A DNA stretch of 23,472 nucleotides from Bacillota bacterium (GCA_963666425.2 CAXXTX010000006.1:1-23472), one strand, 5' to 3'. Shown: positions 1,663 through 18,044, numbered from the stretch's first letter. The notes: generated by a model from the letters alone, not told the origin. Made by a program: numbers and translations.

Positions 1663-3228
1663 TCAGCGTCGCCGGCGCCCCAACGCCATCCCTAGACCGG
1701 CCGCCACCAGCAGCATTGACGCGGGTTCCGGTACCGCGCTCGTCTCGCCCGAATCAAGCAGGCCCATTGCGGCCACAGAAGCCGCCGCTCTGGCCCCGCC
1801 AAAGTCCACGGCCGCGCCGGACGGCCGGGCCAGCATCGCCACCTCGGACGGCAGTATCACATGCCCGGGCTCCTGTGCCGGCGCCAACGGAGCGCCCTTC
1901 TGGCGGCCGCTGGCCAGCACCTGGCCCAGCACGTTGAACTTGAATTTCTTCGTGTCCGGATCGTCGCTGGCAATCGTGACCAGGCCTGACTGCTTGCCGG
2001 CCTGTTTCGTGATCATTCTCAGTTTGAACGTATCTGTGTCACCCGGCAGCAACTCGGGGCTGAGCTGGCCCAGCAGCTTGAAGCCAGCCGGCACGGTCAT
2101 GCTGGTCAGCGACATTGAATCAAAGCCGTCATTGTGAATGTTGAAAATCTGGACCGGCCCCGTCGCCCCCTGCCGAACCGACGTGAACTTCACCGGCGGC
2201 TTCTGCCCGCTCTGCAGGTTCTTTTCCTTCGTCCCCACCTTATTCGCCACCCGGATATTGGGCACATCCTTGGGCGCCGCGGCATAACCGTCCACCGGAC
2301 CTAGTTCCAGGCGCAGGTCATCGAATGAAAAGCCTCCGGAGTCCTGGAAGCCGTTCGAGTGTAGCTGCACGCCCACTGCCTTGACATTGTTGAACTCATG
2401 CGGCTCAAAATCCGCCGTCTGCTCATCGAAGTTGATCGCAAAAGGTGCCTTGGGTTTGTATAGCGCCCACCTGGTCGCTGAGGCGTCCAAGTCCGTGTAC
2501 AGACCATACCCACTGGGGTCGTAGCCCTCAAACGTCGTTTCGGAGATGTAGAAGTTCTGCCCATCCATCACAACGAAGCGGCCGGGGGCCATCCCATACC
2601 AGCCACGCGTGATCGCCACGGAGAGATGCGCGCGGGAATCAAGAACGATCTGACGCTGGTTGTACCCGTTCTTGAAGTCGTTTCGCTTCCAGAGAAAAAT
2701 GGAGTCGAAGGCCGCGGGGCCTACGTCTATTGGTCGCAGCGCCATGTCGCTGTAGTTCAGTTCCGCATGCGTGTAGTCGCCGCCGCGAAGAAAGCGGCCG
2801 TCTGGCGCAACATGGTACGGCACCGCGCCATCGTCGATCGGCATGTACATTTGGCCCCACGTCGGACTGAGCGTATTGAGGTTGAAACTGACGAGTCCGC
2901 CATAGAAACGCCCACCGCTCTTGTCGGGCAGGTAGTATTCGTTGAACGTGTTAAGAGGCGTCTTAAGACTGAACGTCAAGTAGCGAATGCTGTCGTTCGC
3001 CTGTCCATTGCCATCTGCGTCTACACCAGCAAGAATGTGATAGTCGTCGCTTCGTAGGTCACCGTTGATGCCAGGCGTCGGAATGGGCACATTATAATAC
3101 CGGTCAAAAAAGCGCGTCGCCGTCTGTGGCGTCGACGCCGACCACGGAATGTAATCGGCTCGCAGCCGCTCGGCGCCGAGTGCAACGGCAACGAGCGCAA
3201 CCCCAGCTAGAATTCGTCTCTGGTGCAT
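1663..3228 (-). CDS. Secreted PEP-CTERM protein with an ASH/choice-of-anchor-D-like Ig domain
   Basis: AGGAGG RBS before ATG 3228. Signal peptide MHQRRILAGVALVAVALGAERLRA. C-terminal VPEPASMLLVAAGLGMALGRRRR. Ig-like segment FNIHNDGFDSMSLTSMTVPAGF...LLPGDTDTFKL...SGLVTIASDDPD. Confidence 0.88.
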   Translation of the reverse strand: MHQRRILAGVALVAVALGAERLRADYIPWSASTPQTATRFFDRYYNVPIPTPGINGDLRSDDYHILAGVDADGNGQANDSIRYLTFSLKTPLNTFNEYYLPDKSGGRFYGGLVSFNLNTLSPTWGQMYMPIDDGAVPYHVAPDGRFLRGGDYTHAELNYSDMALRPIDVGPAAFDSIFLWKRNDFKNGYNQRQIVLDSRAHLSVAITRGWYGMAPGRFVVMDGQNFYISETTFEGYDPSGYGLYTDLDASATRWALYKPKAPFAINFDEQTADFEPHEFNNVKAVGVQLHSNGFQDSGGFSFDDLRLELGPVDGYAAAPKDVPNIRVANKVGTKEKNLQSGQKPPVKFTSVRQGATGPVQIFNIHNDGFDSMSLTSMTVPAGFKLLGQLSPELLPGDTDTFKLRMITKQAGKQSGLVTIASDDPDTKKFKFNVLGQVLASGRQKGAPLAPAQEPGHVILPSEVAMLARPSGAAVDFGGARAAASVAAMGLLDSGETSAVPEPASMLLVAAGLGMALGRRRR

Positions 3229-3292
3229 GACATGCCTCCTGACGCCTGCCGCGCTCTCCAGTGCCAGATCGGACAACCGGCGTCTGCCTCCA

Positions 3293-4105
3293 TCATACGC
3301 GCCCCACGCCACCGGCGACAACAGAACTCTCCGCCGCGCCCGACTTCTCCCAGGCCGCCCGGTAAAGTGTCGGCACAGACAGGTCGCCATCGCGCTGCGT
3401 CTTCTTGGCCAGAAACACCGCCGATTCTCCAAAAACCCGCCGGCCGCCCACGATGCGTATCGGCAGCCACAGCGGGGAGAAGATGACCCACCGTAAGGAC
3501 GACGCAAACCCGGCCGCTGTTGTGCTTTCGATCACGGAAAACCCCAATTCCTGCATCGTGAGTCGCATCATGTCCACAGTCATCGGCGAGACGTGTCGCA
3601 GCGTCCGATAAGTGTTCTCTCCAAAGCCCCAAAGCTCACCGGTCAGCAGGAACTTGATGCGCCCCTCCCAGTACGCGATATTCGGCAGCGAAAGTGCCAG
3701 ATACCCGTCCTCAGCCAGCAGTCCGTGAGCCTGCTCCAGAAAATGTCGCGGCGAATCCAAGTGCTCGATCACCTCGGTCAGGCAGATCAGCTTGAACCTT
3801 CTCGTGAATCCGGCGGCAAACTCGCCATTCAGATCGACCCTCGTAAAGGGCACATTCGGCAGCGAGAACTCCGTGCCATCCAGGTCCGCCGCATGCAGGT
3901 CCTGCCACCCCTGGTCGCGCAACCGCAACAGCAACGCGCCCGTGCTCGCCCCCAGATCCAGCACGCCGCTTCTGTGCGGCACGTGTTTCCCAATCAGTCG
4001 CACAGCCGCCTGGTGCGTGCCCGGCGCGCAACCATTGGACAAACCCTTGTACGATTCCGCTGGGCGCCGCATCCACCTGCTGTTCAACAACCGCGCCAGC
4101 CCCAT
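3293..4105 (-). CDS. Class I SAM-dependent methyltransferase (polysaccharide-locus type)
   Basis: Motif I VLDLGASTG, then EVIEHLDSPRHFL and GYLALSLPN. GAAGGAG RBS upstream of ATG 4105 (GTG 4108 is an alternative start). Confidence 0.9.
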   Translation of the reverse strand: MGLARLLNSRWMRRPAESYKGLSNGCAPGTHQAAVRLIGKHVPHRSGVLDLGASTGALLLRLRDQGWQDLHAADLDGTEFSLPNVPFTRVDLNGEFAAGFTRRFKLICLTEVIEHLDSPRHFLEQAHGLLAEDGYLALSLPNIAYWEGRIKFLLTGELWGFGENTYRTLRHVSPMTVDMMRLTMQELGFSVIESTTAAGFASSLRWVIFSPLWLPIRIVGGRRVFGESAVFLAKKTQRDGDLSVPTLYRAAWEKSGAAESSVVAGGVGRV

Positions 4106-4249
4106 CACATGGACTCCTTCCGTCCGAACAGATGCAAAACCTGGCGAGTGGTGTCTAGGCTCCGCCCCTGTCAACTGCGCCGCCGGGGCGAACAGTCGAT
4201 TGGCCGTGCGCAACTTGACCGATCAGTCGCGTCATCCGCTTGAAGAACT

Positions 4250-4810
4250 CTACTCCAGCCGTTCAAGCAGCGCGCCGTCGATCTCCAGACTCACCGACCG
4301 GCCGAGGATATCCACGCTCAAGATCAGGCGGTCCGTTCCCGTCCGATCTTCAATAATGCCTTGGAGGCCACGAAATGGCCCCGACCGTATCTCAACTCTA
4401 ACGCCCTTTTTCAAGTAAGGGTAGGGAATCAAGGGTGCTTGCCGCGTTAACGCAAGATGCAGATTCCTCAACTCCCAGTCCAGGGCCTCCTGGGCGGCCA
4501 CTCGAATTACGTTTGCGATCCGCTTGGTTCTATCGGCCTGATAGGCCTGCTCGATTGATCCGCGCAAGAAAACGTAGCCGGGAAACAGCGGTGCACTCAC
4601 CCGAGCCTTGCGCCTCCCGTAATATCGGACCTGATCCACCAGCGGCAGGAAATGTGCTATGCCCATCGCCGCCAGATCCGCAGCGACGATCTTCTCCTGG
4701 CGGCTCCTGGTGTGCAGCACGTGCCATTCGCCCACAATCGCATCCGGAAACGGCACGGCGGCGTCGTCCGTCCCACTCATCCCCGCGAATCCCGACGCTG
4801 TACCGCTCAT
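4250..4810 (-). CDS. UpxY/RfaH-like NusG-paralog transcription antiterminator
   Basis: NGN domain WHVLHTRSRQEK...PLFPGYVFL and KOW motif GVRVEIRSGPFRGLQGII. First gene of a polysaccharide operon. GAAGGAAGGAG RBS before ATG 4810. Confidence 0.9.
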   Translation of the reverse strand: MSGTASGFAGMSGTDDAAVPFPDAIVGEWHVLHTRSRQEKIVAADLAAMGIAHFLPLVDQVRYYGRRKARVSAPLFPGYVFLRGSIEQAYQADRTKRIANVIRVAAQEALDWELRNLHLALTRQAPLIPYPYLKKGVRVEIRSGPFRGLQGIIEDRTGTDRLILSVDILGRSVSLEIDGALLERLE

Positions 4811-5197
4811 GCGATCTCTCCTTCCTTCACGTACAACATCGTGCCGATGCCGGCAAGTTCTGAGCACAATATCGCCTCAGCGGCGCGAAGCAATCCAGCG
4901 CCGCCATCAACTCCTGCCCAGCGGGCGGGCGTCGTCCACAAGCAACATCAGGATGATAACTCATCGAGATTCCCACGATCTAGAACGCCGCATCATGAGG
5001 ATCCCAGCGCGACCGAGACCGGTCCAAGGCGCAGCATGTTAAGATAGGCAACCAATGCGGTTTCGATCTGGCATGCAGCCTAATCGATATTATCGCACCC
5101 ATTGCCCTCCCGCCAGCGGGTGGTGTTCCCGTAAGACTCATACAGACAATATGATACGCGTTTCCTACCATCGACAGCCCGTCCACAGCACTCCGAC

Positions 5198-5236
5198 AAA
5201 AAAACGGCTTGCCCCACCCCGATCATCGGGTATACT
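5198..5236 (+). promoter_or_regulatory. Candidate sigma70-type promoter for the 5418 gene
   Basis: A-tract 5198-5204 (UP-like), TTGCCC 5209-5214, 16-nt spacer, TATACT 5231-5236. Confidence 0.5.
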
Positions 5237-5417
5237 AGCAGCGTCCTCGCATTGGAGCGGGAAGATATTGTGCGTTTGGGTTTGCGGGTCATGTCATTGC
5301 CCGTGGGTGCGAGTGGTGAGAGTGGGATGGCTGGCAACCTAGTGGGCCATCTCCGAACGGTAACGTCAGTTTGTGGGTGTCCTGTCTGGATACACCTCAG
5401 TTTGAAGGAGGTCGGGT

Positions 5418-6431
5418 ATGAATGCGACGAAAATGGTTTTGGCTGCGGCCGTTGCAGCGTTTGGATTTGCAGGCGCGGCCAATGCGTTGACAGTGAACGG
5501 AGTCGTGGATGACATCCTGACGGGCAAGTATCGGGCCGTTGGAGCAGTCCCGTTTGCGACTCCGTACCTCGGTCCCATTGTAGCGAAGTACATTAACTAC
5601 GATGTGGGAAGGCTTTACGGCCCTGCCGATGGCACGTACGGTCGCGCGGTTCCAGCCAACGCAGGCGAATCAAATGCACTGGCTATTGGCCAGATGGATT
5701 TGGTGGCTAATGCTACACCGGCGGATTACAAGTTGGGTGCCTTCGGTGGCGCTGCCTATGCCAGTGAGGATAGCTGGGGTATTGATAGAATCACAGAGAT
5801 CTACGATGAGACTCAGAGCGTGCTGCTCTGGAGCGCGGTTCTGGCGCCGTACGAAATGACAGGCATGTTTTGGGGCGAAACGGACACCTACTTGGACGTG
5901 TCGGGTACTGGAACGGTTCAGAAGATCCATGGAGTCGGCTTCGAGACTAGCCTTTATGTCGATGATACGCCCGACTTCTCCCAGTTGGGCGGGCCGGTTG
6001 CCCGCACGGGGTTAGACAGCTATCCGACGGCTACTGATGGTCTCTTGTTCTGGTCGATGAATGGCCTTGCTGGTGCCGCCGACACTACCTTCCCGCTCGA
6101 TGAGTTCCTGACGACCTTTAACCCAGGCGTTGGCCCAGGAACTCCCAACGTGGGCGATGGTAAAGTCCATGGTACATTCGGTCCGAATGCTTCTGGCGTC
6201 GGTGGTGCCAACGGCACATTTGATGTGCCTACTGGACCCGATTGGAGCCTCCGTTTTACCGGCATCAGCCCGCCTACGGCGGCAGTGTCGGCAGGGCTGG
6301 TCAACTGGACAGTTCAGAGCAATGACCCGCTCGTAACGACGGCGATCCCCACCCCTGCGGCTATCTATGGTGGCCTGCTCGGGCTGGGCATGTTGGTGGG
6401 CCGCAAGACTTGGCGAATGGCTCGCGCATAA
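5418..6431 (+). CDS. Secreted PEP-CTERM-like surface protein (IPTPAA variant sorting signal)
   Basis: GAAGGAGG RBS. Signal peptide ending AGAANA. C-terminal IPTPAAIYGGLLGLGMLVGRKTWRMARA (motif + TM helix + basic tail). Confidence 0.85.
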   Translation: MNATKMVLAAAVAAFGFAGAANALTVNGVVDDILTGKYRAVGAVPFATPYLGPIVAKYINYDVGRLYGPADGTYGRAVPANAGESNALAIGQMDLVANATPADYKLGAFGGAAYASEDSWGIDRITEIYDETQSVLLWSAVLAPYEMTGMFWGETDTYLDVSGTGTVQKIHGVGFETSLYVDDTPDFSQLGGPVARTGLDSYPTATDGLLFWSMNGLAGAADTTFPLDEFLTTFNPGVGPGTPNVGDGKVHGTFGPNASGVGGANGTFDVPTGPDWSLRFTGISPPTAAVSAGLVNWTVQSNDPLVTTAIPTPAAIYGGLLGLGMLVGRKTWRMARA

Positions 6432-6464
6432 CCGCCCTGCGAGCTTGAAATCTTGTTATCTCTT

Positions 6465-6500
6465 GCAGAGGCGGCCCGAATGGCCGCCTCTGCTCTTTCC
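6465..6500 (+). terminator. Rho-independent terminator
   Basis: Perfect 12-bp stem GCAGAGGCGGCC / GGCCGCCTCTGC with a 5-nt loop, followed by TCTTT, 34 nt after the stop and between convergent genes. Confidence 0.8.
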
Positions 6501-6590
6501 TGCTCGCCGTCAGCCGCCTTGCTTCGCGAGAAGCGCACGGATCAGCCGCCTCGCCGGTCAGAGATATGGCGATCCGCCAACGAACCACGA

Positions 6591-7955
6591 CTACATGTAT
6601 TGGAATTTCCGCTGATAGCTCAGTTCCAGGCGCGGCCACTGCTCGTACGGGACGCACGTAACCGCTGCCTCAACGCCGGCAGTCAGATGGATCGCTGCGG
6701 CCAGACCCTGCACCACGACGAATGAGCCACCGGCATTGGGCTTCATCTGCAGGTCCACGTGCAGCCGCGCCCCATGGGTCCGCATCCGAAAGCTTGCCGT
6801 CGTGGCCGCCGCTACACCCGGATCACTGTAGATCGCTTCCTTGACGTGCTCGGGAAATACCTTCGCGGTCGCCACCGTCAAGCTCTGGCCGCGGCCCCAC
6901 ATGCACAGGAACGGGCTTGGCAACTCGCTCTTGCCTACCTCGCCCCGTAGGCCCACGTGTTCCATGACCTCGTTGGCCGTCATCACCTGCGCCCAGTCCC
7001 CGGTCGCATAACGGATCAGCGGGATCCGCCGACCGGGATCCAGCGAGGTTACCACCAGTCGAGGCTTCCCATCTTCGGCCATTGGCGTCTCGATGAAGTA
7101 GTCCATCGGCGACCACTGCACAAAGGTCGGCAGAAATGGCGACTCGCCGAACATCTGCCGTCGAAACTGCTCATCTCTGTGGGCCAGCCGGCGCACCCGC
7201 CGGCAGAAGGGGGTTTCCTGCCCAAGGCTCAGCCCCACCTCCGAAATCCCCAAGCTCACCATCACGTCGCCTCGTTCGGGATGTGCTGTGTCATGGCCCA
7301 GGATTCCGCCGGCATAAGTGCGGAACGCCTCCGGCATCACTTCCGCGCCTGTGATCAGATGGACTCGCCGGTTCGGCCAGCCGATGCCGGCGGCCTCACC
7401 TTCCTCCAGTACCTTCTTCAGAAACGGGTGCTCCGCGATGATGATGATCTGCTCGCACGCTGGCCCCAGTTTCCGCGCCGCCGCCAGGATCGCATCCGAC
7501 CGCAGCCCCGTATCGATGGTCAGTGCCACGCTGGCCGGCACTCGCACCCCCATCGGCAACCCGTTAATGAGCAACGTGCGATGCTTGTCGGCATGAAAGA
7601 AGAATCCCAGCATCTGATCGATCCGTCCGCGCAGCCGCTCGGCGTCCCGCGCGCTTTCCAAACCAAATGAAAAGTCACCCGAATACCCAGAACTCGTGTA
7701 GGCCCCCGTTGCGTCCCCCAACTGACCATCCAGGCACAAGTCGGCCAGTTCGTGATCAACGAAGAGGGCCCGCTTGTTCACCAGCGGCACTCTCCGGCTG
7801 AAGTCCTCGATGGTAGTAACTGAATCCGCCCTGACTCCGCGTTGGCCCAAGATACGCTGATAGGCCGAAACACGCTGGGCAGCTTGATGGAAGGCGCGAA
7901 GTGCTGCCTGCTCGCAAAGACGCCGGACCTCGGTCGAAGATGCCTGCATAGACAT
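6591..7955 (-). CDS. Phenylacetate-CoA ligase-like (PaaK/CapK-type ANL adenylating enzyme)
   Basis: AFHQAAQRVSAY, RRVPLVNK, P-loop-like YTSSGYSG, ITGAE, PLIRYATGDW, KVFPEHVKEAI. AAAGGAG RBS before ATG 7955. Confidence 0.82.
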   Translation of the reverse strand: MSMQASSTEVRRLCEQAALRAFHQAAQRVSAYQRILGQRGVRADSVTTIEDFSRRVPLVNKRALFVDHELADLCLDGQLGDATGAYTSSGYSGDFSFGLESARDAERLRGRIDQMLGFFFHADKHRTLLINGLPMGVRVPASVALTIDTGLRSDAILAAARKLGPACEQIIIIAEHPFLKKVLEEGEAAGIGWPNRRVHLITGAEVMPEAFRTYAGGILGHDTAHPERGDVMVSLGISEVGLSLGQETPFCRRVRRLAHRDEQFRRQMFGESPFLPTFVQWSPMDYFIETPMAEDGKPRLVVTSLDPGRRIPLIRYATGDWAQVMTANEVMEHVGLRGEVGKSELPSPFLCMWGRGQSLTVATAKVFPEHVKEAIYSDPGVAAATTASFRMRTHGARLHVDLQMKPNAGGSFVVVQGLAAAIHLTAGVEAAVTCVPYEQWPRLELSYQRKFQYM

Positions 7956-8099
7956 CGTACGGGTCTCCTTTCCGCGCAGCCCCGACGCTTCGGAGGCGTC
8001 CGGCCCATATCCACCGGCCACTATAGCATCTGGTCGGCCTCATTCCAGCCGCATGCGGCCGACTCGGTTTCTGGACTTCTGGCAACCCGCCGGATGTCG

Positions 8100-8108
8100 T
8101 GCTAGAAT
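8100..8108 (+). promoter_or_regulatory. Candidate extended -10 element for the STAS gene
   Basis: TGCTAGAAT (TGn-TAGAAT) about 100 nt upstream of ATG 8210 in a divergent intergenic region. Confidence 0.4.
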
Positions 8109-8209
8109 GGCGATTCCGAATGGGCCGAAAGGCGAGGCATCACCTTGGTCCGACAGCGAGCACGGGCGGGACAGCGGCCCTCCGCTCTGTGCCCAGCGAG
8201 GAGGCACCC

Positions 8210-8596
8210 ATGCCACAGACACCACAGTTCCTGGATGTTTCCCAGTACAGGGGCGTGACCATCGCGCAGTTGCTGGAAGAGCGTCTGCTTGAGCCACCCA
8301 CCATCGCGGATACTTCCACAGCCTTGCGTGCACTGGTCGACAACCAAGGCACCCCCCTGATACTCCTGGACTTCTCCAGGGTGACGCGCTTCAGCTCGGC
8401 TGCCCTCGGCATGGTGGTCGAGTTGCACCAGCATGTTCGCAACCGTGGTGGCCACCTGTGCCTGGCCAACATCACGCCCCAGATTGGAGAAGTCTTCAGG
8501 ATCACTCGCCTGGATGAAGTGCTCAACATGGCCGCCTCGAACCCCGAAGGTGTAGCACTCCTCAAGCGGCTGGCTGAGGCAGACAGCCGGCCGTAG
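8210..8596 (+). CDS. STAS-domain anti-sigma factor antagonist (SpoIIAA/RsbV-like)
   Basis: LLDFSRVTRFSSAALGMVV...GGHLCLANITPQIGEVFRITRLDEVL. GAGGAGG RBS before ATG 8210. Confidence 0.9.
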   Translation: MPQTPQFLDVSQYRGVTIAQLLEERLLEPPTIADTSTALRALVDNQGTPLILLDFSRVTRFSSAALGMVVELHQHVRNRGGHLCLANITPQIGEVFRITRLDEVLNMAASNPEGVALLKRLAEADSRP

Positions 8597-8621
8597 ATTG
8601 ATCGCAGCGACGCGATGGAAA

Positions 8622-9653
8622 TCAGAGAGCAAAGCTCATCGAAATCGTAAGGGTCTGCGAGTGACCCAGTTCGGGGGAAAGTTCCGGGAAGAAGTCATGC
8701 TGATAGGCCAAGTCGATGGACATCCACTTGGCTGGTGAGACGGCCGCGCCGCACGACCATGAGAAGTGACCCGTCGTATCAACCAGAGAGCCCGCGCGGA
8801 TGAAGATCCCCCGAAACAACTGGTGGTCCACGCCCGCTGAAAAGCGATGAAAATCGGCGTGGCCGGCGTCGGTGTCGGAGATCAGCACCATCTGGTAATC
8901 CGCAAAGATGGTCGAGTCGGGGGCATATTCATAACTGAGGCCCGGCCGAAGGATGAACTGCTCAGTTGTGGACTCCCCCGAGACTTGTTGAAAAGCGGAG
9001 CCGGCGAATACCAGTTGGCGATTGTCATTGAGACTGGCACCGTAGTCAGCAACGATGCCGGTGCGGAGCTTGGGATTGAGCTGATAGAGCACCCCCGCGC
9101 GGAAGTCGATGCCCTCGCTGTCCGTGTGCGCCAAGTCCAGCCCGCTCTGGGCGAAGTTGACTGCGGAGTCCGTGTAGTTGAGGTTAAGGCCAATAGCGAT
9201 GTCAGGCGAGACGCGGATGCCCCATTGAAGTTGGGTAACGTCAGCCTCGAAGTCGAACTCCGGGCCAAGGGCAATCGATGCCTCATTGGACCACACCTGC
9301 GCGGCGGCGGCGAGAAAAGTCCCGGATCGCGGCGACTCCCACGTCAAGGCCTCGCTTGCAATGTAGATGCGGCTGCCCTCGTCGAAGGCGATGGCCGAGA
9401 ACTGCGGAGTGAGGCCGAGCTTCCACTGGCTGGACGCCAGTAGGAACCCCGTGGACGCCGGGTTGACAGAAGTAGCCCACTTGCTGCCGGCTGATGTGTT
9501 GGCCACAGCAGCGACGTCAGCGTAGCCCGCGAACCGTGTAAGTGCGGCCGGCAATCGCAGAGCAAAGTCGGCGTCGTACGAGTCGGCTGCCGCGGATTGA
9601 GATAGTATGCCTGAAGCGATGACACAGATGAAGACGGCGGACCTTGTGAACAT
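8622..9653 (-). CDS. Outer-membrane beta-barrel protein (FadL/PorV-like, family uncertain)
   Basis: Signal peptide ending SAAA, an SVNPA motif in the N-terminal plug-like region, many alternating amphipathic strands (IGLNLNY, FRAGVLYQL, IDLAYQ) and terminal strand LTISMSFAL. AAGGGAG RBS before ATG 9653. Confidence 0.7.
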   Translation of the reverse strand: MFTRSAVFICVIASGILSQSAAADSYDADFALRLPAALTRFAGYADVAAVANTSAGSKWATSVNPASTGFLLASSQWKLGLTPQFSAIAFDEGSRIYIASEALTWESPRSGTFLAAAAQVWSNEASIALGPEFDFEADVTQLQWGIRVSPDIAIGLNLNYTDSAVNFAQSGLDLAHTDSEGIDFRAGVLYQLNPKLRTGIVADYGASLNDNRQLVFAGSAFQQVSGESTTEQFILRPGLSYEYAPDSTIFADYQMVLISDTDAGHADFHRFSAGVDHQLFRGIFIRAGSLVDTTGHFSWSCGAAVSPAKWMSIDLAYQHDFFPELSPELGHSQTLTISMSFAL

Positions 9654-9938
9654 GCGCACTCCCTTCTGATCCGAAGATGCTACAAGTATGCTACCCGCAC
9701 TGCAATCGGGCGCTGCGGGTCTGGATCAGGTCTGTCGCCTCTCCGTCGCCAGTCGCCGGAGGCGGCGCCACTTTGCTTGACAGCCGGCAGCCTCGGCGAT
9801 TACCGTTAATGCAACGGGAATCCAAGGTGTGCCTCTGTTGTCCAATCTGATTGGCTGCCGCGACGATGTTGTTGTGGCCGCCCCGAACGACTCTGAGGAT
9901 GCAACGAAGCTCGCCTTTCAGGTCAACGGGTGACTTCC

Positions 9939-11555
9939 ATGTGGATCGCTCTCCTGGCCGTTGTGGACGCAACCGACGCAACTGGGCTCATTCCGTTTCG
10001 TGCAGTTCCCTTTAATCTGTACTCGATTCCAGACTTGGCAGGCTTTCTGATTAGCGCGGCCGTGGCGATTGTATTCTACCTCCGTCACTTCTTCTTGGGA
10101 CGGCGAAGACTCGACTTCGTATTTGCGACTTGCGTCGCAGGCTCGGCAGGGACATGTCTTGCGATCTTTCTGGCTGACAACGTAGTCCCGGCAAACGTGC
10201 TGTCGAGTCGAGTGCCCCATGCTGCGGAGCTGACCCTGTCGTACGCGCGCGCAACAACGCTTCTCGCACTTGCCTCTCTTACAGGCTTCGTGCATTTCAC
10301 TGAGTGGTATTGGCGTGGCCGGGGCCCATCGTCATGGTTAGTAAACACGACCTACGCCGTCTGCATTGCCTTGTCGCCTCTCATCTGGTCGAACCTGTTT
10401 TTTCTGCGCAAGACGGAACCGGCCAGCCAGTATGGTTCATGGAGTTCCACGGCACCCTGGTGGCCCGACGGTGGCCCGCTGCTCCTTTGTTTTCTCGTGG
10501 AGTCATTGCTGTTTGCGGTGTATTGCCTGTGGCTGCTTTTCAAGAAGGGCGAGCCCCGCCGCGAGAGCGCGTCGCCCAGCCGCTCACGCGCAATCCCTTG
10601 GGCCCTGTTTGTGCTCGTCTGTGGGGGCATCATCGACATCTCGCTCAACAGCGGCGGGTGGACAGGGATCGCGGTGTTCCCTTTTTCGACTGTCGCTTCA
10701 AACCTCATGATCGCGACGGGCTTAACATTGGAGCGACGAGTGATTGACGGGCAACAGCATCAGATGCAAAGAGAGCTATCGCTTGCGGCGAGCATTCAGG
10801 AGCGTCTTCTGAGCCGAGCCCGTCCGGCGATTGCCGGATTCGAGATCTGCGCCTGGAGCAAGCCGGCATCAAAGGTCGGCGGCGATACGTACGATATCTT
10901 TCCCTTGCCGGATGGACGATCGATGATCATGTTGGCCGACGCCAGCGGCCACGGGTTGGCGGCTGCCTTGGTAATCGCCGAGACAAGAGCGTATATCCGC
11001 GCAGTGGCAGTCCATGAGACTGACCCGTCAGGGATCCTGACTCATGTGCAGGAACTGCTCGCGCCAACACTCTCGGGCGCCCAACTCGTGACATGCTTCG
11101 TCGGATTGCTCGATCCGGCCACCGGCGAGTTGACCTACGCGGCGGCCGGCCAGGGGCCAATCCTCTTCGTTGACGGCGCGACGGGCACCGTTGAGCGTGA
11201 GGATGCAGATCGTGTGCCTCTGCTCAATTTCGTCCCAGACCCTCAGGGAGAAACTCGCATCCGGCAGTTGCGCGCGGGTGAAATTCTGTTCGTCCCCAGC
11301 GACGGCTTTTGGGAGGCCCGGAACCACCGTGGGGAGCAGTTCGGCATCGCGCGCCTCACGTGCTTTCTCGAGACAGTGCGCACGGAAGGGGCCGGCATTG
11401 TCGGCGAGCGTGCCCAAGCGGAACTCGGACGTTTTCTCCTGAAACTTGACGCGACCGATGATGTGACCGTCATCGTTGTGCGCCGGATGCCCCAACCTGC
11501 CGCATCAACAGAGGCTGTCGCGCGCCAGTTGAGCACGTCGCCTTCACTGAAGTAA
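9939..11555 (+). CDS. Membrane sensor PP2C/SpoIIE (RsbU-like) serine phosphatase with about 7 N-terminal TM helices
   Basis: RELSLAASIQERLL, VGGDTYD, LADASGHG, AAAGQ, SDGFWEARN, DDVTVIVV: catalytic Asp motifs are present. The N-terminal ~270 aa are hydrophobic. Start uncertain (GTG 9930 or ATG 9939). Confidence 0.88.
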   Translation: MWIALLAVVDATDATGLIPFRAVPFNLYSIPDLAGFLISAAVAIVFYLRHFFLGRRRLDFVFATCVAGSAGTCLAIFLADNVVPANVLSSRVPHAAELTLSYARATTLLALASLTGFVHFTEWYWRGRGPSSWLVNTTYAVCIALSPLIWSNLFFLRKTEPASQYGSWSSTAPWWPDGGPLLLCFLVESLLFAVYCLWLLFKKGEPRRESASPSRSRAIPWALFVLVCGGIIDISLNSGGWTGIAVFPFSTVASNLMIATGLTLERRVIDGQQHQMQRELSLAASIQERLLSRARPAIAGFEICAWSKPASKVGGDTYDIFPLPDGRSMIMLADASGHGLAAALVIAETRAYIRAVAVHETDPSGILTHVQELLAPTLSGAQLVTCFVGLLDPATGELTYAAAGQGPILFVDGATGTVEREDADRVPLLNFVPDPQGETRIRQLRAGEILFVPSDGFWEARNHRGEQFGIARLTCFLETVRTEGAGIVGERAQAELGRFLLKLDATDDVTVIVVRRMPQPAASTEAVARQLSTSPSLK

Positions 11556-11562
11556 TTGAATT

Positions 11563-13251
11563 GGGTGTAACCGGTAGCCCTCGCTGCCTCGCGGGGCACT
11601 GATCCGTGCTTTCTCTGGGGGTTTTCGCGTTGCCGCGCGTCGACAAAATCGCCTCCTTGGGCAAAATCATCGGTCGTCTTGTCAAACTTCCGATGGTTTT
11701 ACGGCAAGGAGGCTCAACCATGTTCCCCACCGCACACCCCGAATGCAACGTCGAATCGGCGTTGAAGCAACTGATCGCACTGGGTCAGTAGCTTACCGCG
11801 GCCGCGGCGGCCGGGACCGCGGAACACCAGGTCGAACGACACCTGTTCAGGCAAATGCTCGCGATGGGAGCTACGCTGCTGGGCGAGTTCTTCAAATCGG
11901 TCGGGCCCGGGGATCTGGGCCCGACGGTGGAACTGAAAAACGGCGACGTGCTCAGGCGGTTGCCGGAGCAGCCCCCGCGGCGGCTGGTCACGGTGTTCGG
12001 CGCGTTTTCCATCCCGCGGTCCGTCTATGGCTCTCGGCCCGGGCAGAAGATCGAGTTGGTTCCGACGGATCAGCGATTGCAGCTTCCCGAGGGCGAGATG
12101 TCATATCTGCTGCAGGACTGGAACCAGATGATGAGCGTGGAACAGCCCTTCGGCACGGTGGCCAAGTCGCTGCAGACGATCCTGGGGCTGAAGCAGTCGG
12201 TCGACACGCTGGAACAGGGCAACCAGCAGATGGCCGGGACGGCCGCTGCTTTTCGAGCCGCACAACCGCCTCCGGGCCCCCAGGCCGAGGGGGAATTGCT
12301 GGTCGTCAGCGAGGACAACAAGGGGATTCCGATGGTCCGTCCGGTGGAGGCCACGCCGGTCGGCGCCCATCTGAAGAAGGGTGAGAAGGCCAACAAGAAG
12401 CAGATGGCGTGCATCGGCGTGGTCTACACGGTGGACCGGCAGGTTCGCACGCCCGAGGAACTGGTGGCGGCGTTGTTCCGCGACCCGGGAAACAAGCGTG
12501 AAAGCCCGACCGAAGCATGCCAGAAGCGCTATTGGGCGGAACTGACGCGCGAGGTGGCCGGCGAGGGGGTGCGTGCTCAGGACGAGGTCTTCAAACACCT
12601 GCGTGAGGAGGTGAAGCAGCGGCGGAAGGAGGGCCAGATCCTGGTGCATCTGAGCGATGGCCAGGCGTCGCTGGAGGAGGACCGCGGGAAGTATCTGCCG
12701 CGGGACCGGAAAACGGTGGACATCCTGGACCTGTTGCACGTGAACCCGCGTCTGTGGGAGGCGGCCCACCTGTTCCACGCCGAAGGCAGCGACGAGGCGA
12801 CCGCGTTCGTCCGCAGGCAAATGCTCCTGGTGCTCAAGGGCAAGGCGAAGCAGGTCATCGACGACCTGCGGCAGGCCGGGGCAAAGCTGCAGGGGGCCAG
12901 GGCCACGCGGCTGAGGAAGCTATGCAAGTTCCTGGAGAAGAACCTGCACCGGATGCGCTATGGCAGGTACCTGCGTGCGGGGTATCCGATCGCCACGGGC
13001 GTGATCGAGGGGGCGTGCCGGCACGTGATCAAGGACCGGATGGAACGAGCGGGGATGCGTTGGAAGATCCCGGGAGCGGAGGCGATGCTGGAACTGCGGA
13101 CGATCCACACGAACGGCGACTGGGACGCATTCCAGAAATACAGGATCGACTCCGAGACCAAGCGTCTGTACCTTCACCCGGAAATCACCCACCCGGAGAT
13201 CACCGCTTGGGCCGCGTGAGGCGTTGAGGCAGCGCGCGAGCGGTTACACCC
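11563..13251 (+). mobile_element. Insertion sequence, ISKra4-like family, 1689 bp
   Basis: Terminal inverted repeats GGGTGTAACCG (11563-11573) / CGGTTACACCC (13241-13251), plus an inner match CGCTGCCTC / GAGGCAGCG, flanking one transposase. Confidence 0.88.
11720..13219 (+). pseudogene. ISKra4-like DDE transposase with an in-frame TAG at codon 24 (11789-11791); downstream ORF 11855-13219 is intact
   Basis: AAGGAGG RBS + ATG 11720 is in the same frame as the 11855 ORF. Motifs SEDNKGIPM, LSDGQ, ILDLLHV and YPIATGVIEGACRHVIKDRMERAGMRW are present. Confidence 0.8.
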
Positions 13252-13312: not shown

Positions 13313-14170
13313 ATGAGGACGAGCGTGGAATGCTTCCCCTGTTTCCTGCGTCAGGCATTTGAGGCGATCCGGCAGGTATCGGAGGATCAGGCGCTTCAGG
13401 AACAACTCCTCAGGCAGGTGTGCTATGAGGCTGCCTCCATGGACCTGCGCACCTCGCCGCCCGCCATGGGGCGGTGGATTCATCAGCGGGTTCGAGCGCT
13501 GACAGGCAATGATGATCCGTATGCCGCTATCAAGGAACGGTTCAATCGGCACGCGATGAACCTCTATCCGAATCTCAGAGTACAGGTGGAGAACTCGCCC
13601 GATCCCTTTGCCATGGCGGTGCGGCTGGCGATTGCCGGCAACCGCATCGACTTTGGCATCAACGGCGGCACGACGGAGCAGGAGGTGGCCCGAGTGCTTC
13701 AACAGGCCGTAGCCTGCCCCATTGCCGGTTCGATCGATGCCCTGCGGCGGGCCGTCCAGCAGGCCAGGCGGATTCTGTACCTGGCAGACAATGCCGGCGA
13801 GATCGTCTTCGATCGCCTCTTGCTTGAGCGGTTGCCCCGGCAGAAAGTGACGTTGGCGGTCCGTGGCCGGCCGATCATCAACGACGCGCTGCGCGAAGAT
13901 GCCGTGGCGGCAGGGCTGGAAGGCCTCGTGGAGATCATCGACAACGGGTGTGATGCCCCCGGCACCACCCTGGACGAATGCTCGCCGGCTTTCCGGGAGT
14001 ATTTCGCCGCCGCCGATCTGATCATTGCCAAGGGCCAGGGCAATTACGAGACGCTGGATGAGTTCGCGAGCAAGCGAATCTTCTTCCTGCTGATGGTGAA
14101 ATGCCCGAGGGTCTCCGAAGCCCTAGGCCAGCCGGTGGGGACCTTCGTCGTGCACTGCGCCCGGCAATGA
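13313..14170 (+). CDS. DUF89/ARMT1-like damage-control metal-dependent phosphatase
   Basis: ECFPCFLRQ, DPYAAIK, AIAGNRIDFG, YLADNAGEIVFD, PIINDA, IIAKGQGNYETL, LLMVKC. Confidence 0.92.
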   Translation: MRTSVECFPCFLRQAFEAIRQVSEDQALQEQLLRQVCYEAASMDLRTSPPAMGRWIHQRVRALTGNDDPYAAIKERFNRHAMNLYPNLRVQVENSPDPFAMAVRLAIAGNRIDFGINGGTTEQEVARVLQQAVACPIAGSIDALRRAVQQARRILYLADNAGEIVFDRLLLERLPRQKVTLAVRGRPIINDALREDAVAAGLEGLVEIIDNGCDAPGTTLDECSPAFREYFAAADLIIAKGQGNYETLDEFASKRIFFLLMVKCPRVSEALGQPVGTFVVHCARQ

Positions 14171-15335: not shown

Positions 15336-15539
15336 ACAGCACGACGGGCTTGATCGCGATGACCCGTTTTCGATGGGGCTGGAAGCATCGGCGTTCGATT
15401 TGCCTTGGAGTCGTCCATACGATTTGTCTGTCTGCCTGGCCTGTGCGCGCTGCGCGCCGCAAATCCGCCGCCGGGAACCGGCCCTCGCCCGCGAGCAGCA
15501 TCTCGCGTCAGACCTGGGTGGAACCGGAGGATCGTCACG

Positions 15540-18044
15540 ATGCAAACCGTTCCGAAGGAATCCAGCCCGAAGATTTCTGGCTCGACGCCATCAACCGCGA
15601 AGGAACCCGACATCGCGTCCTCGCCCGTTCCGGACACGCTCGCGGCGCTTCACGTGAACCCCGATACGGGTCTGACGCGCGCCGACGTGGACGTCCGCCG
15701 GAAGGAGCACGGCTACAACGAGGTGGCCGAGCAGAAAGGGCACCCGGTCCTCAAGTTCCTCAGCAAGTTCTGGGGTCTGTCGGCGTGGATGCTCGAACTG
15801 ATCATGCTTTTATCGCTGGTGCTGCGGAAATACTCCGATCTGATCGTGGTGGGCACGCTGTTGCTGGTCAATGCCGTGTTGAGCTTCATGCAGGAGCGCC
15901 GGGCAGCCGGCGTCGTCGAGACACTGCGGCGGCGGCTGCAGGTCAGCACGCGCGTCTTGCGCGATGCGAGCTGGCAGGTCATTCCCGCCCACGAACTGGT
16001 CCCCGGCGACATCGTCCGGGTGCGCCAGGGTGACATCATTCCCGCAGATGTGAAGCTCCTGACCGGAACGATGAGCGTTGACCAATCGGCCCTCACCGGT
16101 GAGTCAAAGGACGCCGACAAGGGGCCCGGCGGCGTGCTCTCCTCTGGGTCGGTCGTCCGACGAGGCGAGGGCAACGGCGTGGTGATGCTGACGGGGGCGA
16201 AGACCTACTTCGGCCGCACCACGCAACTGGTGCAGGCGGCGCGGCCCAAGCTCCACATTGAAGCAGTGGTTGCCAAGGTCGTCCGCTGGCTGTTTGTCAT
16301 CGTCGGCGCGCTGTTGGGCGTGGTGGTGGTGATGTCACTGATTCGTGGGGCACCGCTCCTTGAGATGGTTTCGCTCATGCTCGTTCTATTGATGAGCGCG
16401 GTGCCGGTTGCTCTCCCCGTTATGTTCACGGTAAGTATGGCCGTCGGGTCGAAGGAACTGGCCAAGCGCGGCGTGCTGGTCACGCGACTGAGCGCCTCGG
16501 AAGATGCCGCCACGATGGACGTCCTCTGCGTGGACAAGACGGGGACAATCACGATGAACCAACTGGCCATTACTGGCGTGATCCCACTGGACCACTCGAC
16601 GGAATCCGACGTGCTGTTCGCCGGAGCGATGGCGTCTCAAGAGGCCAACCAGGATCCAATCGACCTGGCGTTTCTGGCCGCGGCGAAAGCGCGACATCTC
16701 TTGGAAGGACTGCCTGCAGTCACGCCAGTCTCCTTCAAGCCGTTCGATGCGCAGAATCGGCGGACGGAGGCCGTGGTCGAACAGAACGGGCAGCGGCTGC
16801 GGGTCATGAAAGGGGCCGTGCGGACGGTCGCTGAAGCGTGCGGGCTCCACCCGCCGGCCATTGAGGCGCTGGAAGCTCGCGTCAGCGAATCGGCCCTGAA
16901 AGGGTATCGGACGCTGGCGGTAGGGCGCGGCCCCGAAACGGGCACCCCTGCATTGCTCGGGTTGGTGACGTTGTACGACCCGCCCCGGCCGGACGCCAGA
17001 CAACTCATCGACACGCTTCGCGACCTGGGCGTGAGCGTGAAGATGCTCACCGGCGACGCCTTGGCGGTCGCCTCCGAAATCGCTCAGGGAGTTGGGCTGG
17101 CCAGTATCCGTCGGGTTGCGGACCTGAAGGCTGCCAGCGCTCAGCCGAGCAACGCGGCGGTCGATCTCCTGGCGGACGCCGATGGTTTCGCCGAGGTGTA
17201 CCCGGAAGACAAGTACATCGTTGTGCAGCACTTGCAGGCGGCGGGTCACGTCACCGGCATGACGGGCGACGGGGTCAATGATGCTCCCGCTCTACGCCAG
17301 GCCGAGGTGGGGATCGCGGTCAGCAACGCCACGGACGTCGCCAAGGGCGCTGCCAGCGTCGTTCTGACCGAACCGGGGCTCACCAACATCGTGGCGTTGG
17401 TCGAGCAGGGGCGGACCATCTACCAGCGGGTCCTGACCTGGATCATCAACAAGATCAGCCGGACGATCCTGAAGGCTGCCTTCGTGGCCATCGCGTTCGT
17501 GGCAACCGGCAAGTTCGTCGTCTCCGCCTTTGCCATGCTGTTGCTGGTTTTCATGACCGACTTCGCCAAGATCGCCCTGGCCACCGACCACGTTCGACCC
17601 TCCAGGAAGCCCGAGACGTGGAACATCGGGGGCTTCATCACGGTGTCCGTGGTGCTGGGCGTCGCGATGGTCCTGGAAACCCTGTTCCTCTTGTGGATCG
17701 CCTGGTCGCGATTCGGCCTGGTGGGCAACGATAATGCTCTCTACACCTTCAGCTTCCTGACGCTGCTCTACTTTGCGGTGTTTTCCATCGTGTCCGCGCG
17801 GGAGCGTCGCGTGTTCTGGGCGACAATGCCAGGCAGGAGCCTCGTGGCCGCCCTGGCGCTCAACGCGTTGGCGGGCACGGCGCTGACGCTCGTGGGCCTG
17901 CCCGACCTGATGCCCTTGCCTTGGTGGCAGACGCTGGCCATTCTTGGCTACGCCCTGGTCGCGTGCCTCGGCGTCAACGACGCCGTTAAGGTCGCGATGA
18001 TCAAGTGGCGCGTCCCGGCAGCAGTGGCGTCGGAGGCGGATTGA
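15540..18044 (+). CDS. Plasma-membrane proton-efflux P-type ATPase (P3A-like)
   Basis: DQSALTGES, VPVALPVMFTVSMAVG, LCVDKTGTIT, KGA, DPPR, MLTGD, MTGDGVNDAPAL, TM6 TDF. GGAGG RBS before ATG 15540. Confidence 0.93.
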   Translation: MQTVPKESSPKISGSTPSTAKEPDIASSPVPDTLAALHVNPDTGLTRADVDVRRKEHGYNEVAEQKGHPVLKFLSKFWGLSAWMLELIMLLSLVLRKYSDLIVVGTLLLVNAVLSFMQERRAAGVVETLRRRLQVSTRVLRDASWQVIPAHELVPGDIVRVRQGDIIPADVKLLTGTMSVDQSALTGESKDADKGPGGVLSSGSVVRRGEGNGVVMLTGAKTYFGRTTQLVQAARPKLHIEAVVAKVVRWLFVIVGALLGVVVVMSLIRGAPLLEMVSLMLVLLMSAVPVALPVMFTVSMAVGSKELAKRGVLVTRLSASEDAATMDVLCVDKTGTITMNQLAITGVIPLDHSTESDVLFAGAMASQEANQDPIDLAFLAAAKARHLLEGLPAVTPVSFKPFDAQNRRTEAVVEQNGQRLRVMKGAVRTVAEACGLHPPAIEALEARVSESALKGYRTLAVGRGPETGTPALLGLVTLYDPPRPDARQLIDTLRDLGVSVKMLTGDALAVASEIAQGVGLASIRRVADLKAASAQPSNAAVDLLADADGFAEVYPEDKYIVVQHLQAAGHVTGMTGDGVNDAPALRQAEVGIAVSNATDVAKGAASVVLTEPGLTNIVALVEQGRTIYQRVLTWIINKISRTILKAAFVAIAFVATGKFVVSAFAMLLLVFMTDFAKIALATDHVRPSRKPETWNIGGFITVSVVLGVAMVLETLFLLWIAWSRFGLVGNDNALYTFSFLTLLYFAVFSIVSARERRVFWATMPGRSLVAALALNALAGTALTLVGLPDLMPLPWWQTLAILGYALVACLGVNDAVKVAMIKWRVPAAVASEAD

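Follow-up and report, generated by a model that had tools for sequence, protein, structure and literature searches.

The 23,472-bp contig analysed here (CAXXTX010000006.1 of assembly GCA_963666425.2, assigned to a Bacillota bacterium; called the window below, meaning the whole stretch) carries a module of four genes, which encode an adenylate-forming ligase, a single-domain STAS protein, an outer-membrane barrel and a membrane-bound SpoIIE/PP2C phosphatase. Two of these products, the barrel and the membrane receptor that forms the N-terminal part of the phosphatase, are a conserved perception pair. With an even chance of being right, the window is read as part of a circuit for a hydrophobic signal that is linked to PEP-CTERM/exopolysaccharide (EPS) loci, of which it holds the receiver half and one enzyme of biosynthesis. 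In this circuit a FadL-like outer-membrane channel would admit, or possibly release, a greasy small molecule; a HisKA_7TM-like receptor domain in the inner membrane would detect it and control the fused phosphatase, which would most likely dephosphorylate the neighbouring STAS protein at Ser63; and the STAS protein would feed a partner switch, composed of an RsbW-like kinase and a sigma factor or other target, encoded off the contig. The ligase would act in a pathway that in relatives includes FeeM and, in some loci, ThiF-like, tryptophanase-like or amidohydrolase enzymes, and would probably activate a carboxylate to make or tailor the sensed molecule, of N-acyl-(aromatic)-amino-acid type. We infer four elements of this scheme, namely the identity of the ligand, the direction of transport, the equation of the ligase product with the ligand and that of the STAS protein with the phosphatase substrate.

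The perception pair emerges from the surroundings of barrel homologues. In the window, the barrel gene (8622-9653, minus strand; likely start ATG 9653 within the open reading frame (ORF) 8622-9659) encodes a protein with a signal peptide, and the phosphatase gene on the plus strand encodes an N-terminal multi-pass membrane sensor domain, HisKA_7TM-like and referred to as type A (9930-10829), followed by the SpoIIE/PP2C output domain (10830-11555). A metagenome scan with the barrel gave 46 loci, from which duplicates (L037 of L036, L077 of L076, L038 and L041 of L039, L046 of L045, L068 of L019) and loci without a readable neighbour (L043, L057, L059, L072, L074, L078-L081) were removed; with the window and 10 genome loci included, the final set holds 42 non-redundant loci, whose neighbours were counted by hand. 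A signal-transduction protein is the immediate neighbour of the barrel in 17 of them. Eight have a type-A sensor directly beside the barrel, with PP2C (window, L020, L034, L040), cyclase (L009, L033) or Ser/Thr kinase (L036, L042) outputs, and in L040 a sigma-70 family gene follows the barrel-PP2C pair. Four others have a second kind of sensor, type B, directly downstream of the barrel, attached to HD-GYP (L048, L056), GGDEF (L052) or PAS-histidine kinase (L047) outputs, and other signalling proteins adjoin the barrel in five loci (L039, L050, L058, L060, L076). The type-A or type-B sensor lies downstream of the barrel on the same strand in 9 of the 12 loci, with gaps of -4 to 322 bp, the exceptions including the divergent pair of the window and the convergent pair of L042. 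The multi-pass type-B domain (L047:3085-3879, L048:1435-2334, L052:1476-2345, L056:11124-11888) has no Pfam match and is 47-89% identical across the HD-GYP, GGDEF and PAS-histidine-kinase proteins. Kinship between types A and B was considered and rejected (hhalign probability 0.7%).

Occurrence across genomes points the same way. In a sample of 401 Planctomycetota genomes, 8 have the barrel and 3 have the type-A domain, each of the three with the domain beside a barrel (hypergeometric p 5e-6), while the ligase occurs in 9 and together with the barrel in 3, against 0.18 expected (p 4e-4), both p-values ignoring shared ancestry. Among 251 sampled Verrucomicrobiota genomes the barrel is found in one, the seed genome, so that this phylum allows no replicate of the co-occurrence test. 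The input side of the pair is constant and the output side variable, which is taken as the signature of a ligand-perception module composed of barrel and receptor.

The interchange of outputs extends well beyond the barrel loci. The phosphatase domain of the window protein matches PF07228 at residues 327-519 (E 7.5e-37, profile positions 1-191 of 192), and its metal-binding residues D319 (GGD), D337/G340/H341/G342 (DASGHG), D458/G459 (SDG) and D510/D511 (DD) are invariant in the alignment. The preceding 290 residues contain six hydrophobic segments between residues 33 and 265 in a Kyte-Doolittle scan. Homologues of this region form the N-termini of cyclases, kinases and PP2Cs whose genes lie beside barrel homologues. 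A first, sequence-only reading of the window had suggested that the region is a sensor, which its relatives bear out, and had proposed a profile check of the N-terminus, which gave a mixed picture: the window protein itself has no Pfam match here at E up to 10, HisKA_7TM (PF16927) included, whereas the homologue in L033 scores 47.4 bits against a cut-off of 28.6 and 12 of 56 scanned type-A relatives exceed the PF16927 threshold. Neighbours in the ESM Atlas belong to HisKA_7TM or 7TMR-DISM clusters, with scores under 0.9, and a word-index search with the sensor region matched only the window's own protein. A type-A profile search of 1.84 billion representatives retrieved 126 proteins at E up to 1e-3 and 66 at E up to 1e-30. 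Output domains were scanned in the 56 longer relatives (361 residues or more, window protein excluded): 17 carry a histidine kinase, 16 a SpoIIE (PP2C) domain, 10 an adenylate/guanylate cyclase, 8 a Ser/Thr kinase (one also with a cyclase domain) and 3 a TIR domain, and in 2 no output was recognised. The membrane domain thus appears, from these comparisons, to be the sensor module of a HisKA_7TM-like family with interchangeable outputs. The TIR domain (P0054, P0090, P0102) is an unusual output for a seven-transmembrane (7TM) receptor.

The barrel, in turn, is FadL/TodX-like by its predicted structure, as the sequence-only reading had supposed, and the likeness includes a plug. An alignment of 43 family members yielded an AlphaFold2 (AF2) model with a predicted local distance difference test (pLDDT) score of 87.8, in which DSSP assigns 14 strands plus N-terminal helices. 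Its top Foldseek matches are all FadL-family channels, led by TbuX (3bry, E 3.9e-13) and followed by CymD, FadL and TodX, and VIA-align gives Z scores of 27.8 for CymD and 25.8 for FadL over about 292 residues. The match includes the N-terminal plug, since model residue 33 aligns to FadL residue 2 (model 33-343 to FadL 2-421); for OmpG, which has no plug, the alignment starts only at residue 77 and Z is 19. Within the N-terminal segment, N64, P65 and A66 are invariant in the 43 members. The plug of FadL carries an N33-P34-A35 motif, going by the titles of PDB entries, and its residue-level equivalence to the NPA of the barrel is putative. Sequence profiles are less telling: Toluene_X (PF03349) gives no match at E up to 10, the only hits in that range being Phenol_MetA_deg (E 4.5e-4), which at 20.8 bits stays below its cut-off of 22, and DUF2490, and identity to solved FadL-family members is 12-19%. 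The sections of PMC7728783 considered here describe the members of the FadL/Toluene_X family as 14-stranded barrels that are closed off by about 40 N-terminal residues forming a plug. The aromatic-hydrocarbon channels TodX, TbuX and CymD treated in the same sections are the best structural matches (Z 27-28, root-mean-square deviation 3.0-3.5 Å over about 292 residues) and have the 14-stranded barrel and N-terminal plug in common with the window protein. They sit, however, in catabolic operons, whereas the window barrel family adjoins sensors and biosynthetic genes, and the window barrel is shorter, with about 320 mature residues against about 390-420.

The third member of the module, the ligase (6591-7955, minus strand; 454 residues, full ORF 6591-8021), likely starts at ATG 7955, which is preceded by the Shine-Dalgarno sequence AAGGAGA. 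It has no Pfam match, AMP-binding included, even at E up to 10, and the PaaK models of NCBIfam match it weakly and at the N-terminus, reaching 17.9 and 18.2 bits where the cut-offs are 646.3 and 700, respectively (TIGR02155 / NF041878). More distant comparison places it in the PaaK family of the ANL superfamily. A profile of 24 family members finds PaaK 4r1l among PDB sequences at E 5.1e-12, with ytSSGysG aligned to SSGtTG in the P-loop, GaE to GAE, RYaTgD to RYrTrD and wGrg to kGrs in the hinge. Residues S88, S89, G90, E205, Y316, T318, D320, G354 and K450 are invariant in the 24 sequences, and K450 would be the equivalent of the catalytic C-terminal lysine. The AF2 model (pLDDT 90, predicted template modelling (pTM) score 0.89) retrieves PaaK1 2y27 in Foldseek (E 1.9e-22, TM 0.70), the top 30 or so matches being PaaK-family entries throughout; NatL2, AjiA1 and ClxA are matched as well. 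With PaaK1/2, NatL2, AjiA1 and ClxA the modelled ligase shares the two-domain fold (TM about 0.7) and the aligned P-loop, Y-x-T-x-D and hinge motifs; it differs in falling below every family threshold, in its P-loop TSSGYSG and in its context, which is that of NAS (N-acyl amino acid synthase) and PEP-CTERM genes rather than of paa catabolism or benzoxazole clusters. By predicted fold and motifs, it is a PaaK-like ANL enzyme, as first proposed, and not a PaaK equivalog. It is also not catabolic, because no scanned related locus carries paa genes; in the window itself paa catabolic families are absent from the 18 large ORFs scanned against Pfam and NCBIfam, in line with the original reading, and the same scores and loci speak against the case that this reading had named as its refutation, a bona fide phenylacetate ligase with a paa pathway elsewhere.

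These results bear on the simplest rival explanation, according to which the four genes are neighbours by chance or through rearrangement by an insertion sequence (IS), the ligase being an ordinary catabolic phenylacetate-CoA ligase and the PP2C/STAS pair a generic stress partner switch. Some source databases do label relatives of the ligase 'phenylacetate-CoA ligase', an IS abuts the PP2C gene, and the adjacency of the STAS gene is unique to the window. The low PaaK scores, an identity to solved PaaKs of only 16-18%, the lack of paa genes in the window and in every related locus scanned, and the recurrence of ligase-barrel and barrel-sensor adjacencies across phyla nevertheless make this explanation very improbable.

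The genes around the ligase instead tie it to lipid synthesis. A ligase-anchored scan of a genome collection gave 15 loci, 13 of which hold true family members, the marginal L014 and L015 being dropped; no paa, STAS or PP2C genes were found in the loci scanned. FeeM-type NAS genes (PF21926) adjoin the ligase in 8 of the 13 (L001, L002, L004, L005, L006, L007, L012 and, weakly, L011), and FeeM stands next to the ligase in five of five ligase-bearing genomes tested. Further neighbours are PrsT-like TPR proteins, an XrtA-type deacetylase, Wza, sugar transferase and GT4 genes, and L005 has an extracytoplasmic function (ECF) sigma/FecR pair 1.5 kb from the ligase. An Amidohydro_2 gene lies directly upstream of the ligase in L007-L009, where a ThiF-like gene is also close by, alone in L008 and as a ThiF-tryptophanase-like fusion in L007 and L009. 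An analogy of these amidohydrolase-ligase pairs with NatL2/NatAM was dropped, the best solved relatives of the amidohydrolase being 3irs and LigW-type decarboxylases. The fusion of a ThiF-like adenylyltransferase to a tryptophanase/tyrosine-phenol-lyase-like domain recurs near both ligase and barrel (L007:4994-7171, L009:6459-8642, L055:13020-15359); NCBIfam PRK14852 models a 989-residue FeeM-ThiF fusion. The ThiF-tryptophanase-like fusions may be related to the dehydrotyrosine chemistry proposed for stieleriacines.

A PEP-CTERM protein completes this set. In the window, the gene next to the ligase, PEP2 (5418-6431, plus strand), encodes a secreted PEP-CTERM-like protein that has a signal peptide and whose C-terminal tail, containing IPTPAAIYGGLLGLGMLVGRK, is of the PEP-CTERM-like kind; the protein itself has no Pfam match. 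PEP2 homologues adjoin the ligase in L006, L007, L008 and L009, and matches to a dedicated hidden Markov model (HMM) are also present in L012 (weak), L029, L032, L044 and L065; the homologues of L008, L029, L044 and L065 match PEP-CTERM models. PEP2 is therefore a conserved neighbour of the ligase and, in correction of the sequence-only reading, belongs to the same conserved neighbourhood as the module. Ligase, FeeM and PEP-CTERM protein are a recurring biosynthetic cassette for N-acyl amino acid-type lipids, which is the published NAS/PEP-CTERM association: NAS genes have been linked to PEP-CTERM/exosortase loci since 2011, as stated in the parts of PMC7293339 considered, which cite Craig et al. 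2011. The same parts report that planctomycete N-acyl tyrosines, the stieleriacines, alter biofilm composition, and put forward one cluster that combines NAS with a TcdA/ThiF-like enzyme and with a PEP-CTERM protein. The likeness lies in FeeM-type NAS, ThiF/TcdA-like and PEP-CTERM genes clustered by EPS genes in Planctomycetota, with a product that affects biofilms. The differences are that the published descriptions, as far as these parts go, lack a PaaK-like ligase, a FadL-like barrel and a dedicated membrane receptor (the word 'ligase' has 0 occurrences in the main text as consulted), and that the window lacks an NAS gene. The sequence-only reading had suggested a possible link to PEP-CTERM/EPS expression, and the association with PEP-CTERM/EPS genes is conserved in related loci. 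Its idea that the ligase makes or removes an acyl or aromatic acid signal is altered, in that the ligase of relatives is part of a FeeM cassette whose PEP-CTERM link was already published, and the synthase is absent from the window, which does encode PEP-CTERM proteins (1663-3507, 5418-6431) next to EPS genes but has no FeeM gene to go with them.

On the output side, the STAS gene (8210-8596, plus strand; 128 residues, full ORF 8099-8596) likely starts at ATG 8210, preceded by GGAGG. Its product matches PF01740 (E 4.6e-11, 42.9 bits against a cut-off of 22.6) and, below the cut-off of 53.45, TIGR00377 (E 5.3e-11, 42.4 bits). It aligns with SpoIIAA 1th8 and with 4hyl, a further SpoIIAA structure (1tid) being matched as well; S63 falls on the residue that is the phospho-serine in SpoIIAA, and all 11 STAS paralogues compared keep it. 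A single-sequence STAS HMM picks up paralogues at 21-34% identity. The protein is judged to be of the partner-switching type because its closest homologues sit in STAS/HATPase_c_2 (RsbW-like)/STAS triads in three planctomycete genomes (G002:C157:11175-12427, G374:C34:33711-34907 and G197:C249 at about 10030-11166), and its kinase must lie off the contig. As anticipated, neither an RsbW/SpoIIAB-like kinase nor a sigma factor was found in scans of the window; the assembly as a whole shows no HATPase_c_2 match above cut-off, and the window contig looks foreign to it. A predicted complex of the PP2C domain (residues 290-541) with the STAS protein scored 0.18 and 0.08 against a mark of 0.32, which counts neither for nor against their interaction. 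RsbU/RsbP-RsbV and SpoIIE-SpoIIAA are known partner-switching systems. The window resembles them in placing a SpoIIE-family PP2C with intact motifs beside a single-domain STAS protein that keeps the phospho-serine; it differs in its input, a HisKA_7TM-like membrane domain paired with an outer-membrane channel, in the absence of an RsbW-like kinase or sigma factor from the window, and in that the STAS adjacency is not conserved in three other 7TM-PP2C loci.

How far the receiver and the biosynthetic cassette belong together is the point on which the rival explanations turn. The complete set of four genes is not seen again elsewhere. What does come back is two units, one made up of barrel and sensor, the other of ligase, FeeM and PEP-CTERM protein. 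The co-occurrence of all four families elsewhere, which the sequence-only reading had put forward as a check, therefore holds in part: barrel, sensor and ligase co-occur, while the STAS gene stands beside the module only in the window. The barrel-sensor and ligase-FeeM units are joined in a minority of loci, the window included, and more often than their rarity would allow by chance. Seven of the 42 barrel loci have the ligase no more than 5 kb from the barrel: it is directly adjacent and co-directional in L029, L044, L065 and L067 and close by in L009, L038/L039 and the window, and L029 has the co-directional order FeeM, barrel, ligase. FeeM-like genes are also present near the barrels of L053, L054, L058 and, weakly, L062.

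This arrangement could be taken to mean that the barrel is an outer-membrane exit for the FeeM/ligase lipid, and that the adjacent sensors keep track only indirectly of envelope load or of the product sent out. In L029 the barrel does have biosynthetic genes on both sides, in the three other adjacent loci it comes directly after the ligase, and MMPL transporters adjoin it in L055 and L069. This explanation is nonetheless quite unlikely, given that what most often stands directly beside the barrel is a membrane sensor (17 of 42 loci) rather than a transporter (2 of 42), that barrel-sensor pairs exist without any synthase, and that FadL-family channels are documented for uptake in the parts of PMC5977203 and PMC7728783 considered. 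A precedent for the reading of the window as a receiver is given in the first of these, where FadL helps S. meliloti to perceive long-chain acyl-homoserine lactones (AHLs). In that account, as in the proposed circuit, a FadL-family channel brings a hydrophobic acylated signal to a receptor and sharpens the response, and the signal synthase is of the LuxI/FeeM GNAT-like kind. The FadL of S. meliloti is, however, a general fatty-acid channel homologue whose gene does not accompany that of the receptor, a cytoplasmic LuxR protein (same sections), whereas here a highly diverged barrel is encoded next to a polytopic membrane receptor with outputs that change from genome to genome, and the signal would presumably be of the N-acyl amino acid type rather than an AHL.

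Alternatively, the barrel and sensor may detect exogenous hydrophobic compounds, such as foreign lipids, aromatics, surfactants or the signals of other species, with no tie to the ligase product, and the ligase may be near only by way of shared PEP-CTERM/EPS islands. This explanation, judged unlikely, draws on several observations, some of which also weigh against the circuit proposed above. Two genomes have a barrel followed by a 7TM-PP2C (G197) or a 7TM-cyclase (G329), and neither ligase nor FeeM was found in them, so that the sensed molecule need not be self-made there, or these metagenome-assembled genomes are incomplete. Six of the nine ligase-bearing genomes lack the barrel; only three loci (window, L009, L038/L039) combine a sensor next to the barrel with a ligase no further than 5 kb away; and TodX, TbuX and CymD, to which the barrel is structurally related, take up aromatic hydrocarbons, according to the sections of PMC7728783 cited above. 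Further points against the circuit are that five of the eight genomes with a barrel have no ligase; that 25 of the 42 barrel loci have no adjacent signalling gene, among them a diverged subclade (L019/L068, L070, L071, L073) located by sugar-metabolism genes; that barrel and PP2C genes are divergent only in the window; that the STAS adjacency is seen in one of four barrel/7TM-PP2C loci, that of the window, and the STAS HMM found STAS genes in no other ligase or barrel locus; that a dedicated HMM found no FeeM on the window contig or in the rest of the assembly; and that kinase, sigma factor and ligand are all unobserved. Against purely exogenous sensing stands the finding that the rare ligase (43 clusters in an index of 5.8 billion proteins) directly adjoins an equally rare barrel on the same strand in four loci, in one of which (L029) the barrel sits between FeeM and ligase, an order hard to explain by island co-location alone.

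The contig itself is probably a mis-binned, planctomycete-like fragment foreign to its assembly. It is present in full as the window and has 62% GC, whereas the main contig of the same assembly measures 2.9 Mb with 47% GC; the estimated contamination of the assembly is 6.85%, and the names on the best protein matches of the window (Tepidisphaeraceae, Phycisphaerae, Planctomycetales) point to Planctomycetota. The window contig alone holds any of the six families sought in the assembly, and because this contig looks foreign the assembly cannot be used to search for partner genes. The window was mapped through an ORF listing and Pfam and NCBIfam scans of its 18 large ORFs, with likely start codons chosen by an upstream Shine-Dalgarno sequence. 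All four module genes are present and intact. The ligase and STAS genes are divergent and 254 bp apart, the STAS and barrel genes convergent and 25 bp apart, and the barrel and PP2C genes divergent and 276 bp apart, which agrees with the two divergent pairs, bounded by a terminator and an IS, described initially. On the left the boundary is a terminator-like GC-rich hairpin (6465-6493, plus strand; 12 pairs, 10 of them G-C, and a T-rich tail) between the convergent PEP2 and ligase genes. On the right it is an ISKra4-family element (11563-13251, plus strand) that begins 7 bp past the PP2C stop codon, with a transposase (11855-13219, NF033572, E 2.6e-73) and imperfect 16-nt terminal inverted repeats (11563-11578 and 13236-13251); no clear target-site duplication was seen in the sequence flanking its ends. 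The insertion may have separated the PP2C gene from its original downstream neighbour, a position that holds a sigma factor gene in L040. A search of positions 4800-12000 against Rfam gave no match.

The left part of the window is occupied by a polysaccharide locus on the minus strand, with a Wzm-like permease, a GT4 glycosyltransferase, a PEP-CTERM protein of 614 residues (1663-3507), a methyltransferase (3293-4213) and an UpxY/NusG-like antiterminator (4250-4867). The ORFs of the PEP-CTERM protein and the methyltransferase overlap by about 215 bp, and the true start of the former probably lies further downstream than listed. Directly after the IS, an ARMT1-like damage-control phosphatase (13313-14170, plus strand; PF01937, E 1.9e-69) is encoded, followed by a P-type ATPase (15405-18044, plus strand) whose score of 706 bits against the model of the plasma-membrane proton-efflux type IIIA (TIGR01647, E 4e-212) exceeds the curated cut-off of 615. 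ATPases of this type are best known from fungi and plants.

Taken singly, none of the elements is new: the link between NAS and PEP-CTERM genes is known, and so are FadL channels, switches of the PP2C-STAS kind and 7TM receptors with diverse outputs. A literature search found nothing joining FadL with exosortase or PEP-CTERM with SpoIIE, although homologues of the ligase or barrel may be contained in the supplements of Craig et al. 2011 and among the hypothetical proteins of the stieleriacine cluster. Publications pairing 'N-acyl amino acid synthase' with FadL do not, by their titles and the beginnings of their abstracts, describe the module of the window, and those pairing PEP-CTERM with phenylacetate comprise only unrelated work. 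A wider proposal, which is tentative and on the unlikely side, is that Planctomycetota and some Verrucomicrobiota possess an unrecognised form of cell-to-cell signalling. Its autoinducers would be stieleriacine-like N-acyl amino acids, made by FeeM and tailored by the ligase; the FadL-like channel and polytopic receptor would act as a two-membrane receiver plugged into the network of each host, be it a PP2C partner switch, cyclic nucleotides (cNMP), cyclic di-GMP, Ser/Thr or His kinases or TIR; and the output would control PEP-CTERM/EPS floc formation. If this were true, genomes that have the receiver without a synthase would be listening in on others, much as LuxR solos do. The parts of PMC7293339 considered name no receptor or uptake route for N-acyl amino acids, and the conserved channel-receptor coupling, recurrently attached to the ligase/NAS cassette, supplies candidate receptors for these molecules. 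It would also extend the notion that hydrophobic signals require outer-membrane channels of their own from a single rhizobial case to a genetically hard-wired pair.

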